Both the position numbers and the translations under genes were made by a program. Below are positions 3,853-7,741 of a stretch of DNA of 20,000 nt, piece by piece. The notes beneath the pieces were generated by a model, which did not search any database, was not told where the DNA came from, and saw nothing but the letters and a program-made list of their open reading frames with translations. Position 1 is the first letter of the stretch, and each line of letters opens with the position of its first letter. Source of the DNA: Reclinomonas americana ATCC 50394 (taxonomy: Eukaryota); the NCBI GenBank assembly GCA_048213135.1, contig PS015299.1:136845-156844 (forward strand), given 5' to 3'.

Positions 3853-6800
3853 ATGTCGGTGAGTTGTATTGATTGAGTGGGGGACACTTGTTGTTCTCTC
3901 GCTTCTCTCTGTCTTCTCTCCTCGTCGCTTGTCACTCACTGCCTTGTATGCGACACAGTTCTCTGTGAATGTGAGTGCGGCGCATGATTCGTCGCTGTCG
4001 GTGGTTGTGGAGGGCATGTCGGCCATGTCCACTCTCGCGGACTTGCTGCGCGAGGCCACACGCTTGCTGCGTGAGAAGAGTGGAGATGAGGGGATGGAGA
4101 TTGTGGGGGTGGAGAAGCCGGTACCGTATGACCTGACGCACGCCAGTGGCGTTCCGCTGTGTGCGCTTGGCATTAACTCATCAACTCATCTTGTTGTCCG
4201 TCTGACACTTGGCGTGGCGCTGTCGTCGAGTGGAGGGAGTGAGAGTGGAAGGTGTGTGTTAATGAGTCATCCGCTTTGCATAACATGCAGCTCACTCTCA
4301 TGTCTCCCAGCAGCAACTCGGAGAGAGTGACTCGGTTTGTTCTGCTTGCCTTCGTCCTCCTTCTCTCCTTGCTTGTTCTTCCACTTGATCCGAGTATGTG
4401 CTGACTGTGTTTGTGTGTGCATGCGCAGCATGATCAACTCGCAGCGCGTCAACATGGCCTTTGAGGTGGTGGAGGAGGCCGTGCGTCTGCGCTGTCAACG
4501 CGCACTGGCACAGTTCAGTCGCGATCATCCCGACTTTGATGTGCGGGCGTGGGTGCCGACATTCTCGCCTGCTGGTATGGATGTGGCGGCAGTGAAGGCG
4601 TGGCGAGCGAGACATTCAGTGCCTGGCATTGGATTCGTCAAGCTGCCGAGAGAAGCATGGGCGCATGTGCATGATTGGCACGCTACTTTCGCCGCCAACT
4701 CGGCTGTTGATCCACCGTGCAGTGGTTTGGACATTGGCGATCTCGGCTCCATGTTCTCGTACGGGGCGTTTATTGAGATGGACAGCAGTGACGGTCGGCG
4801 GCAAGTACACGAATTGCTTTTAGTTGTGGCTGAACGACTGGCAATTGAGCAAGCTGTGCAAGTGCGTAATACGTTGGCACACCATCGAGACCAAGCATTG
4901 TGGACGGATGCCACTGTGCAGCAGTACCTTGGTGACCGTGGTGTTTTCCTCTCCGTCCTCTCTCGACTGCAGTTGACGGCTGATGAGCAAGCTCGATTCG
5001 CTGCGCGTATCGTTGAGGCGCGCCACGTTCAGCACGTCGTCAGCACATTTGATGAGCGGCTGCATCGACTGGCTGTGCGTGAGGTCTCCTTCTACCAATA
5101 CGACGAGAGTGTGCGTAAGGACATGCAGATGTATGTGCCACTGCTGTGTTCACGTGATCATGACGTCTCATCGAGAGAGAAGATGACGGATCTGTTGACG
5201 GAGGTGAATATTTTCCTCTCCGACTCCAATACCAGTCAGCATGTGCTGGTGCTCTTCGGCAACAGTGGCGCCGGCAAGACCACCACCATGTCGGTGTTGG
5301 CTGAGCGAGCATGGCGACAGTGGCAGACGAGAGAGAGCAGACGAGTGCCTGTGCGTGTGCCTCTTGGTGCACTGCGCAATGCCGATGAGCGGCTGTTGGA
5401 GGAGGCACTGGATCGATTGTCGCCCGAGTTGGGATTGGAGTCGGATGTGCGACGACTGAAGGAGGAGCCACTGCTGTTGTTGCTTGACGGGTACGACGAG
5501 CTGTACCGTGGTGTGAATCTGTTTGTGAAGAACCAGCTGGATGTGTGTCACGATGTGAAGGTGATTATCACATGTCGAGGTGATTACGCACTGACGGCTC
5601 TGGGTGGTGTGACGCAGTATCGACGGTATTTTGCACCGGATGCACGAGGACAGTTGTGCATGCAGCAGCTGACGGAGCGACACATTGCTCCGTTCAACAA
5701 GGAGCAGATTGAGGAGTATATTGGGCGACTGGTGCAAGTTGGTTGTGATGACGGAGAAGTGCGATGGTCAACTGCCGAAGAGTACTTTTATGCACTGAAA
5801 AGGGTGCACGGACTTGATGCACTGGTATCGAATCCATTCCTGTTGGCAGTGGTGGCTCGTGTGCTGCCGCAGCTGGTGGCTCGTGGTGTGCAGCGACCGA
5901 CTCGGTGTGATGTGTTTGACCGATTCATTCGACAGTGGATTGAGAGGGAGCAGGAGAGGCAGACGCGTCTCGGTGTGGAGCTTGTGCCGAGTGAGGAGAC
6001 GTGTCTCGCATTCTGTGAGGGTCTGGCGCGGTTGATGCATGAGAGGAATGTGGTGCGAGTGTCTGTGATTGAGAGTCAATCAAGTGAGGATCACTTTGGT
6101 GGTGCGCCACTTGCCTTGCGACAAGTGAAAGAGGGACCATTTTACAAGTTCCTCGGGCAGAAGAACCAGCATGTGCGAGTGTGCTGTCCGATTTTGCGAC
6201 GGTATGGGACAACGCAGTGGGGATTCGTACATCTATCGCTGCTGGAGCACTGCGTGGCACGACATGTGTTTGCGTGGGACACGTGGGATGAGGAGAGGAG
6301 ATTGACGATGCAGGATGTGCGGCAGCATGTGCTGGCTGTCCGATTGCTGAATGATCGACCGTCGTTGGTGGAGCAGATGGCCGAGGTGGTGCGCCGATCT
6401 CCTGCGTTGCAAGCGAGACTGTGGGAGGTGATTGAGATGTCGCGTGAGGTGGATGAGGAGCGAGTGGTGACGGCGGCTTCGAATGCAGCGACGGTGTTGT
6501 GTGTGGCACAAGTGTCGTTCAGTGGACGAGATTTGTCGGGTGTGCGAGTGAGGGGTGCGGATTTGAGGGATGCGGTGATGCACAGGACGGTGTGGAGGGG
6601 AGCGGACTTGCGAGGGGTGAATTTGTGCATGGCGTATGCGAGGGAGGCGGATTTCAGGGGGGTGGATGTGACGGGTGTGAAGTGGCCACGGAAGCCGCTG
6701 GAAGGACACATGGATTGGGTGCGTGCAGTGGCAGTGACACCCGATGGGCAGCACGCTGTGAGTGGCAGTTGGGACAAGACTGTACGGGTGTGGTCGGTGG

Positions 6801-7741
6801 TACGTGGCGAGAAGGTGCGTCGACTGGAAGGGCACACAAGTAAGGTGCTTGCAGTGGCAGTGACACCCGATGGCCAGCACATTGTGAGTGGCAGTGGGGA
6901 CGAGACTGTACGTGTGTGGTCGGTGGCAAATGGCGAGGAGGTGCGCCGACTGGAAGGCCACACAGAATGGGTGCTTGCAGTGACAGTGACACCCGATGGC
7001 CAGCACGTTGTGAGTGGCAGTAATGACAAGACTGTGCGGGTGTGGTCGGTGGCAAGTGGCGGGGAGGTGCGCCGACTGGAAGGCCACACGATGGCGGTGA
7101 ATGCCGTGGCAGTGACACCCGATGGCCAGCACATTATAAGTGGCAGTGGAGACAAGACTGTACGGATGTGGTCGGTGGCAAGTGGTGAGGAGGTGCGCCG
7201 ACTGGAAGGCCACACGAATGTGGTGATTGCAGTTGCAGTAACATTCGATGGCCAGTACATTGTTAGTGGCAGTTATGACAGTACTGTACGGGTGTGGTCG
7301 GTGGCAAGTGGCGAGGAGGTGCGCAGACTGGAGGGCCACATGAGTGGGGTATGGGCAGTGGCAGTCACTCCAGATGGCCAGCACATTGTGAGTGGCAGTG
7401 GGGACTATACTATACGGGTGTGGTCCATGGCAAGTGGTGAGGAGGTGCGCCGACTGGAAGGCCACACGCAAATGGTGTGTGCGGTGGCAGTGACACCCGA
7501 TGGCCAGCACATTGTTAGTGGCAGTTATGACAATACTGTACGGGTGTGGTCGGTAACAAGTGACGAGGAGGTGCGCCGACTGGATGGCCACAGGAGAGCG
7601 GTGTTTGCAGTGGCAGCGACTCCTGATGGCCAGCACATTGATCCACGTGACAAGGAGATGCTACATGTGCGCCGTCGTGAAGGACTACTCGAGCGCATTT
7701 TAGGTTCTTTCCGTCCTGATTTCACCGATTTAGTTCTGTGA
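3853..7741 (+). CDS. NLR/STAND-like receptor copy 1: Ubl, HEPN-like, NACHT, pentapeptide, WD40; exons 3853-3858, 3959-4251, 4429-7741; 1203 aa
   Basis: ATG TCG|gtgagt intron 3859-3958 (ctcac branch, cacag, phase 0); AG|gtgtgt intron 4252-4428 (ctgac branch, cgcag, phase 2). Both introns sit at the same positions and phases in copy 2. Walker A GNSGAGKT 5258-5281, Walker B LLLLLDGYDE 5471-5500, sensor-1 KVIITCR, NPFLL and WHD-type FVHLSLLEH motifs are present. Ends at TGA 7739-7741. Confidence 0.9.
3959..4251 (+). other. Exon 2 encoding a ubiquitin-like (beta-grasp/UBX-like) N-terminal domain
   Basis: FSVNVSAA..SLSVVVEG.MSAMSTLADLLREATRLL..MEIVGV.KPVPYDL..GVPLCALGINSSTHLVVRL follows the beta-beta-alpha-beta-...-'LxxLGI'-beta pattern of ubiquitin-like folds. 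Conserved in copy 2 at 12112-12410. Pattern recognition only. Confidence 0.6.
4430..4990 (+). other. Putative HEPN-family RNase domain
   Basis: R-x4-H motif RNTLAH at 4865-4882, preceded by helical AIEQAVQV and upstream LDIGDLGSMF..F. Copy 2 keeps RNEFAH (12986-13003) and FDTTALHSIM despite low surrounding identity. Boundaries are approximate. Confidence 0.65.
5240..6260 (+). other. NACHT NTPase module (NBD-HD1-WHD), copy 1
   Basis: VLVLFGNSGAGKT, LLLLLDGYDE, VIITCR, IAPFNKEQIEEYI, NPFLL and FVHLSLLEH occur in canonical order and spacing. Confidence 0.92.
6518..6685 (+). repeat. Pentapeptide repeat (A-D/N-L-x-x type) linker, copy 1
   Basis: FSGRDLSGVRVRGADLRDAVMHRTVWRGADLRGVNLCMAYAREADFRGVDVTGVKW shows 5-residue periodicity. 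Confidence 0.9.
6698..7639 (+). repeat. WD40 array, 7 full 126-bp (42-aa) units plus a partial eighth
   Basis: Units start at 6698, 6824, 6950, 7076, 7202, 7328, 7454 and 7580. Consensus LEGHTxxVxAVAVTPDGQHIVSGSxDxTVRVWSVASGEEVRR. Confidence 0.97.

Follow-up and report, generated by a model that had tools for sequence, protein, structure and literature searches.

A tandem pair of putative NLR-like receptor genes, probably from a jakobid, whose WD40 repeats appear diversified at the sites known from fungi

Near-identical repeats with positively selected contact residues have been worked out in fungi, in the setting of heterokaryon incompatibility, and catalogued in bacteria. In HET-E of Podospora, two pairs of repeat positions lie on the interaction platform of the WD40 domain, (7,9) in the d-a loop and (25,27) in the b-c turn (Paoletti et al. 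2007, PMC1805685), and the accessible text of a later study lists positions 10, 11, 12, 14, 30, 32 and 39 in a register shifted by five (Ament-Velasquez et al. 2025, PMC12222747); eleven WD40 units are given in these two sources as the usual number in functional het-d and het-e alleles. The pattern was generalised to fungal NOD-like receptors (NLRs) by Dyrka et al. (2014, PMC4986451). The accessible text of a wider survey reports 305 highly repetitive WD40 proteins, defined by an identity threshold of 0.7 and with their diversity at hotspot sites, of which half are from bacteria and a third from fungi, with protists mentioned and none from animals or plants (Hu et al. 2017, PMC5587647). Finally, NACHT-PPR-WD40 NOD-like receptors have been described from Mortierellomycota and their Mycoavidus and Glomeribacter endosymbionts (Ciach et al. 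2024, PMC11291939). Here we describe two genes that join a NACHT domain, pentapeptide repeats and a WD40 array within a window of 20,000 nucleotides (the whole stretch of DNA analysed: contig PS015299.1, positions 136,845 to 156,844 of the forward strand; coordinates below count from its first letter), and compare them with these systems.

We consider it likely that both genes code for NLR-like STAND receptors of the NACHT-pentapeptide-WD40 type and that they belong to a non-fungal protist, probably a jakobid. The window contains a tandem segmental duplication, each unit of which has one long open frame on the + strand, at 4337-7741 (copy 1) and 12797-16276 (copy 2). In both copies an N-terminal domain, predicted to be helical, is followed by a NACHT nucleoside triphosphatase (NTPase), pentapeptide repeats and a WD40 array of 126-bp units, and both Walker motifs, GNSGAGKTT and LLLLLDGYDE, were located in each. 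Two of the features that define STAND/NACHT proteins are present: a NACHT domain with Walker A and Walker B motifs, and a C-terminal repeat sensor, here of WD40 type, that forms a superstructure. Together with this domain order and repeat structure, we observed selected sites with a consistent place in the fold and homology to a family of fungal and bacterial proteins.

Tandem Repeats Finder delimited the 126-bp arrays at 6718-7640 (7.3 copies) and 14821-16209 (11.0 copies). In frame, the units of copy 1 begin at 6698 + 126n and those of copy 2 at 14825 + 126n, giving 19 units when a partial one is included. An original prediction, made from the letters of this DNA alone, had placed the variation between units in the motifs GH-x-X-X-V-X and SGS-X-D-X, and this is where we found it, at codons 6, 7, 9, 25 and 27 of the unit. 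Its counts for two of these codons were exact on a per-codon tally: 9 residues are encoded at codon 7 (His+3), where the third base is G in 18 of 19 units, and 11 at codon 9 (His+5), where it is T in 15 of 19. Ten residues were found at codon 6 (His+2; third base T in 13 of 19 units), seven in 18 units at codon 25 (SGS-X-D; T in 10 of 18) and six at codon 27 (D-X; G in 15 of 18), while 16 of the remaining 37 codons are invariant in amino acid and 21 carry two to four residues. Mean pairwise amino-acid identity between units was 0.80, rising to 0.89 in the scaffold and falling to 0.17 at the five variable sites, and mean nucleotide identity was 0.85 (18 units). The scaffold had been called nearly invariant, which its synonymous divergence between units (0.27) shows to be somewhat overstated. 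The proposed equivalence with the specificity sites of the Podospora NWD genes stands, as the same pairs, (7,9) and (25,27), fall in the same structural elements as described for HET-E (PMC1805685); the positions listed in the accessible text of PMC12222747 correspond to unit codons 5, 6, 7, 9, 25, 27 and 34 here.

Across the 18 full units, nucleotide diversity at codon positions 1, 2 and 3 was 0.54, 0.64 and 0.37 in the five variable codons and 0.07, 0.05 and 0.18 in the scaffold codons. The suggestion that the wobble base is conserved while positions 1 and 2 vary held at codons 7, 9 and 27 and was weaker at codons 6 and 25. The argument built on it is sound in essence: residue-changing changes aside, the variable codons are conserved at their third positions to about the same degree as synonymous sites elsewhere. 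Although their positions 1 and 2 are close to saturation, no local mutation hot spot is present. Targeted mutagenesis that randomised the first two bases at chosen codons, in the manner of diversity-generating retroelements (DGRs), would leave an NNG/NNT pattern of this kind, and variable positions 1-2 with G or T kept as the third base of codons 7, 9 and 27 bear a superficial likeness to the DGR signature. DGRs act at AAC codons, however, and the bases at positions 1-2 are not centred on A here, codon 27 excepted. Pfam searches of both genes and 19 other open reading frames (ORFs) of the window returned no reverse transcriptase, no template repeat was evident, and those third-base changes that are present yield residues that require them (W, M, Q). 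Strong selection acting on modest synonymous divergence predicts the same pattern, and DGRs are not known from eukaryotes; we therefore regard such mutagenesis as extremely unlikely.

We estimated selection on the 18 full units without recourse to a tree. Nei-Gojobori estimates over 153 pairs gave a nonsynonymous divergence (dN) of 1.04 and a synonymous divergence (dS) of 0.43 at the five variable codons, and a dN of 0.057, a dS of 0.27 and a dN/dS of 0.24 at the 37 scaffold codons. With the scaffold synonymous rate as neutral yardstick, the ratio of the nonsynonymous proportion at variable codons to the synonymous proportion in the scaffold (pN/pS) was 2.5, with a 95% interval of 1.63-4.08 from a bootstrap over units and codons in which none of 2000 resamples was at or below 1. 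In nine independent unit pairs, picked by scaffold distance alone, 64 of 111 nonsynonymous sites had changed at the variable codons, compared with 51 of 285 synonymous sites overall (Fisher p = 4e-14). Site models were fitted with our own GY94-type implementation, using F3x4 codon frequencies and 6 beta categories, with topology and relative branch lengths fixed from IQ-TREE and one scale factor. Twice the log-likelihood difference (2dlnL) was 54.3 for M1a/M2a, with an omega (dN/dS) of 6.6 for about 9.5% of sites, 62.3 for M7/M8 and 48.7 for M8a/M8 (omega 6.56); on a scaffold-only tree the M1a/M2a value reached up to 159.6. Codons 6, 7, 9 and 25 had posteriors above 0.99. Codon 27, variable as it is with its six residues, was not called as selected (posterior below 0.5).

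The dN/dS ratio at the variable sites hence exceeds 1 by the tree-free ratio and by omega alike, and the diversifying selection proposed for them is supported, in the site models at codons 6, 7, 9 and 25. These results support the view that the variable WD40 residues diverged under positive selection while the scaffold was held by purifying selection. Relaxed constraint would have surface loop residues drift freely at an omega of about 1, possibly in decaying genes; loops do tolerate change, and the 5' end of copy 2 is damaged. We judge this very unlikely, as M8a, in which omega is fixed at 1, was rejected against M8, the tree-free interval excludes 1, the long frames are intact over about 3.3 kb, and dN/dS is 0.24 both between the copies and in the scaffold.

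To place the variable codons in the fold we used an AlphaFold model of the segment encoded by 6620-7738, built on a 23-row alignment. Its mean predicted local distance difference test score (pLDDT) was 84.6 and its predicted template modelling score (pTM) 0.81, with a pLDDT above 90 over most of residues 31-320 and a drop across the partial eighth unit (7580..7639). DSSP assigned 28 strands, with strand a at unit codons 8-13, b at 19-24, c at 28-33 and d running from codon 38 to codon 2 of the next unit. Within this model, codons 6 and 7 belong to the d-a loop and codon 9 comes second in strand a, with codons 25 and 27 on either side of the Asp in the b-c turn. By established convention the d-a loop and the b-c turn of WD40 blades form the top face of the propeller, so the variable residues are predicted to cluster on one face, as had been anticipated. 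The closest structures found by Foldseek were 8-bladed, namely ODA16 (template modelling (TM) score 0.80, root-mean-square deviation 1.9 over 314 columns) and also Tako8, and 7-bladed chains ranked after them (TM 0.66-0.70). Among solved structures the top match by sequence was 2ymu (E 1.9e-172), a highly repetitive WD40 protein with the same 42-residue register.

The same prediction had coupled diversifying selection to concerted evolution of the units, and for this second part the evidence is suggestive, not decisive. Signs of unit turnover speak for it. The arrays are of unequal length (seven full units and a partial one in copy 1, eleven in copy 2), no offset between them is collinear (offset means of 9.8-12.7 differences against 11.2 overall), and the dS between units of the two copies, 0.26, is below the 0.36-0.47 that separates their NACHT regions. 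In copy 2, units 9-11 are recent near-copies with the same variable residues; units 9 and 11 are identical in protein and differ at 3 scaffold bases. Only unit 1 retains recognisably equal variable residues in both copies (D-W-R..K). On the other side, the units are not near-identical, distances within a copy equal those between copies, and the unit tree is weakly supported. The same observations bear on the possibility of a one-off differentiation of blades, in which a single amplification was followed by fast change of the top face to build one composite site and then by stability, as in an ordinary scaffold protein. The substantial dS of the units, about equal within and between copies, and their star-like and weakly supported tree speak for such a history, as does a comparison confined to one assembly. 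It sits poorly with arrays that lack positional orthology and differ in unit number, with the recent copies at units 9-11 of copy 2, and with a unit dS below the dS of the flanks between the copies; fusion to a NACHT domain and the same variable columns in many relatives also fit a sensor role. We therefore hold a one-off differentiation to be unlikely and prefer a sensor array whose units have turned over.

The region upstream of the array was used as a query for HMMER against 1.84 billion representative sequences, and matched 4935 proteins at E<=0.001 and 344 at E<=1e-30. Matches extend from query residues of about 170-260 to 748, which is the NACHT-to-pentapeptide module, with E values down to 7.5e-71; none of the 150 matches listed covers the first ~160 residues of the query. 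The closest named sequence, about 91% identical to both copies by tblastn, is a protein of the jakobid Reclinomonas americana derived from expressed sequence tags (ESTs), which bears out the earlier assignment of the locus to a non-fungal eukaryote. This protein represents a third paralogue or else a difference between strains, and because it is EST-derived, a close relative of the window genes appears to be transcribed. The other named relatives are proteins of Modicella, Linnemannia and Mortierella and those of one Glomeribacter genome, and these fungal and endosymbiont members share 30-36% identity with the window genes across some 500 residues of the module (E 1e-40 to 1e-71). We also scanned prokaryotes with one genome per species, and tblastn confirmed 162 of 550 candidate stretches. 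The best 80 of the 162 are mostly from Mycoavidus cysteinexigens, with others from Chlamydiae, Coxiellaceae, Tatlockia, Myxococcales and further metagenome-assembled genomes. The module is heavily multiplied in Mycoavidus cysteinexigens genomes, where it occupies dozens of loci among those best 80. Mycoavidus, Chlamydiae, Coxiellaceae and Tatlockia are bacteria living inside eukaryotic cells, and their carriage of the module hints at traffic of the receptor family between hosts and intracellular bacteria.

Among 152 stored matches, 13 carried repetitive arrays (at least 3 consecutive 42-spaced units with a mean identity of at least 0.7), and in these 13 the columns of highest variability were mainly drawn from positions 6, 7, 9, 25 and 27. 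By homology, the window genes belong to the NACHT-PPR-WD40 family known from Mortierellomycota and their endosymbionts. In a quick LG+G4 tree of the NACHT module with 56 rows, the window pair occupies its own long branch, in a weakly supported group with Tatlockia and unnamed sequences, and falls outside a 19-row clade of fungal, Mycoavidus and Glomeribacter sequences that holds all 4 fungal rows (Shimodaira-Hasegawa-like approximate likelihood ratio test, SH-aLRT, 99); these 56 rows resolved neither a donor nor a direction of transfer. That most named relatives are host-associated bacteria, and that the genes are intronless, could indicate that the locus itself is bacterial, from an endosymbiont or a contaminant, and not nuclear DNA of a protist. 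Such an origin seems highly improbable given the 91% match to a jakobid EST-derived protein, the separate long branch of the window genes, and 3.8-kb purine-rich microsatellite spacers devoid of coding signal, unlike the gene density of bacteria.

All features of the two genes lie on the + strand. The coding sequence of copy 1 (4430..7741; 1103 codons and a stop, no intron needed) was set to start at the methionine of MINSQR (4430) because this point is conserved in copy 2. It opens with an N-terminal domain of about 235 residues, all-helical by prediction (4430..5134), which contains an R-x4-H motif at 4865-4882. The NACHT core follows at 5243..5590 (Pfam PF05729, E=4.6e-8, 33.5 bits against a cut-off of 26.7), with Walker A at 5258-5284 and Walker B at 5471-5500. 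An AA.NAATVL motif and then pentapeptide repeats (6473..6697; Pfam PF00805, E=1.2e-7, 31.6 bits, cut-off 20.2) bridge the NACHT module and the WD40 array, a stretch that is conserved in the consensus of the family. The array itself comprises seven full 126-bp units at 6698..7579, where Pfam WD40 (PF00400) matches seven stretches, and the partial eighth unit, whose homology to the unit is confined to its first 20 codons. A C-terminal tail at 7640..7741 ends in ...EGLLERILGSFRPDFTDLVL, followed by the stop codon, and is common to copy 2 (16211-16276); in both copies it reads ..EGLLERILGSF.PDFTDLVL after the array, and it matched no family in either.

Copy 2 retains a remnant of the original start at 12585..12722. 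Here the loss of 22 bp compared with copy 1 is followed by a TGA at 12720 in the MINSQR frame; downstream, the homologous frame is interrupted by a TAG ahead of the long frame, which begins at 12797. That frame (12797..16276) has 1159 codons and its first ATG at 12890. It carries the R-x4-H motif at 12986-13003, NACHT at 13355-13843 (41.1 bits, cut-off 26.7) with Walker A at 13373-13399, pentapeptide repeats, and a WD40 array of eleven full 126-bp units at 14825..16210, with eleven stretches matched by PF00400. Copy 2 may start at ATG 12890, may be a pseudogene, or may owe its damaged 5' end to an error in the draft. Outside the array the copies differ by a dS of 0.47 and a dN of 0.115 over 670 aligned codons; this dN/dS of 0.24 indicates that purifying selection has acted on both copies through most of their history since they were duplicated. 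Just upstream of the R-x4-H motif, 4684-4910 and 12797-13010 share 43% amino-acid identity and are interrupted by indels, compared with 78-89% identity elsewhere in the protein. No intron is needed to read either 3.3-kb coding region (4430-7741, 12797-16276), and a single-exon gene would favour unequal recombination within the WD40 array.

The N-terminal domain gave few leads. Residues 1-235 of copy 1 were modelled as all-helical by AlphaFold from a two-row alignment, at a pLDDT of 38.8 that is too low for use. The R-x4-H motif is kept in both copies at aligned positions, as RNTLAH in copy 1 and RNEFAH in copy 2; R-x4-6-H is the defining motif of HEPN RNases. Pfam HEPN_Swt1 matched copy 2 alone and below its cut-off (E=0.04, 14.6 bits, cut-off 27.5), and the HEPN_Swt1 and HEPN_DZIP3 clusters of the Atlas scored 0.79-0.80, a range that chance also attains, and are a lead only. 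Word-index sequence searches, at near and at shorter lengths, returned no relatives at E<=0.1, PDB sequences none at E<=10, and PADLOC three matches only, all at E 0.001-0.01. From these weak leads together, we think it possible, at somewhat short of even chances, that this domain is a HEPN-like RNase.

At the level of the locus, self-blastn of the window resolved a duplication of about 8.2 kb, 12-7953 against 8004-16488, in four collinear blocks of 81-88% identity: 12-827, 789-4553, 4901-7640 and 7667-7953 pair with 8004-8793, 8972-12708, 13016-15767 and 16202-16488. Each duplication unit (12..7953 and 8004..16488, both +) consists of a purine-rich spacer and one copy of the NLR-like gene. 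The spacers, which precede each gene with a length of about 3.8 kb (789-4553 and 8972-12708), are strongly purine-rich and T-poor on the + strand and contain GA/TC/CA microsatellites, with a GC skew of up to 0.47 and an AT skew of up to 0.57; no coding signal was found in them. They were duplicated together with the genes and are 84% identical, and because their Jukes-Cantor (JC) divergence of 0.18 lies below the coding synonymous divergence of 0.36-0.47, they may be under constraint or have been homogenised recently. Scaffolding gaps in the spacer between the genes, each a run of 20 N (8891-8910 and 9992-10011), mark the assembly as a draft. Among the 19 other ORFs of the window, Pfam gave a single match, LPG_synthase_TM (E 0.0012), which fell under the cut-off and was put down to chance.

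How such proteins might work can be proposed from their likeness to other receptors. The WD40 array would fold into a 7- to 8-bladed beta-propeller, of which four to five top-face residues per blade would have diverged by positive selection, so that the paralogues, and the blades within each, might offer different binding surfaces. Duplication, loss and shuffling of units within and between copies could then create new arrangements, with selection keeping amino-acid novelty at the contact sites and purifying selection holding the scaffold. By analogy with other NLRs, binding of a ligand to the propeller would free the NACHT NTPase to oligomerise in a nucleotide-dependent manner, and the gathered N-terminal domains, possibly of HEPN-type RNase character, would signal or kill. 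Ligand binding, oligomerisation, effector activity and an immune role are all ascribed to the window proteins by this analogy, and the likely targets in a unicellular flagellate would be viruses or intracellular bacteria, not conspecific cells. In its fullest form, the proposal is that this deep-branching flagellate runs a self-renewing repertoire in the fungal style, in which WD40 units are exchanged among NLR-like genes under positive selection and a HEPN-like RNase serves as the module of killing or arrest. This we regard as doubtful, but if true it would extend repeat-shuffling NLR immunity beyond fungi and link it with a gene family that intracellular bacteria also carry.

Several points weigh against seeing a diversifying receptor system here. 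Since units differ by a dS of 0.27, homogenisation is slow or old compared with Podospora. Recombination and a wrong tree inflate the likelihood ratios of the site models (from 54 to 160), whose p-values are unreliable alone; because these ratios depend on the tree, the claim of selection rests on the tree-free figures, with the site models as support. Measured against the synonymous differences of the variable codons themselves, the ratio is just 1.4-2.6, a figure drawn from very few synonymous sites. What was compared are blades and paralogues of one assembly, not alleles, and such a comparison would bear no witness to an ongoing arms race. Placement on the top face was read from the strand topology of the model and from the literature, not from coordinates, and is thus a predicted one. 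Copy 2 has lost its original start to the 22-bp deletion and a stop codon, and may be a pseudogene, which leaves the word repertoire resting on two genes, one of them damaged at its 5' end. The N-terminal domain, finally, has no significant match to any family.

The general phenomenon is already published for fungi, for bacteria and, in catalogue form, for protists; we found no published description of NACHT-WD40 genes in jakobids or of NACHT in Reclinomonas in a search of papers outside subscription. The practical value of the present locus is modest for now, and its interest lies in the comparison. Like het-e, het-d and het-r of Podospora, the window genes place a NACHT domain ahead of a WD40 array whose 42-residue units are highly conserved among themselves. 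Positions 7, 9 and 25 (12, 14 and 30 in the later numbering) are selected here as in the accessible HNWD accounts, and 27 (= 32) is variable here and not called; unit number differs between family members in both, copy 2 having the familiar eleven. Internal identity, above 80% in HNWD, is borderline here at 0.80 in amino acids. The window genes differ in that the HET family is absent from their Pfam matches at E<=1 (N-terminal 749 and 668 residues of the two copies), and a pentapeptide-repeat segment stands between NACHT and WD40; lacking a HET domain and carrying this linker, they are not HNWD members. Their units are also less alike (dS 0.27), with no process resembling repeat-induced point mutation (RIP) implied, and in a unicellular flagellate heterokaryon incompatibility is without obvious counterpart. 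Their NACHT module seems to lie nearer to the Mortierellomycota and bacterial family than to anything that could be tied to Podospora.

The highly repetitive WD40 proteins of Hu et al. (2017) share with the window arrays an internal identity above the 0.7 threshold (0.80 here) and variation at predicted top-face hotspots; that survey is a catalogue, and its accessible text holds no jakobid NACHT protein and no site-by-site selection test in a protist. The solved chain 2ymu, with 14 repeats in two propellers, is without a NACHT domain. In the NACHT-PPR-WD40 NLRs of Mortierellomycota and their endosymbionts (Ciach et al. 2024), the domain order is the same and several members have highly repetitive arrays that vary at the same columns, while the N-terminal domain of the window proteins is unrelated by sequence and their host is a protist. 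The family link to Mycoavidus, Glomeribacter, Chlamydiae, Coxiellaceae and Legionellaceae bears on the movement of NLR-like genes between eukaryotic hosts and intracellular bacteria. Taken together, finding the site pattern of the fungal genes in a NACHT receptor of a free-living, non-fusing protist argues that this way of diversifying a sensor has a general role in the recognition of foreign molecules and not one specific to fungal allorecognition.

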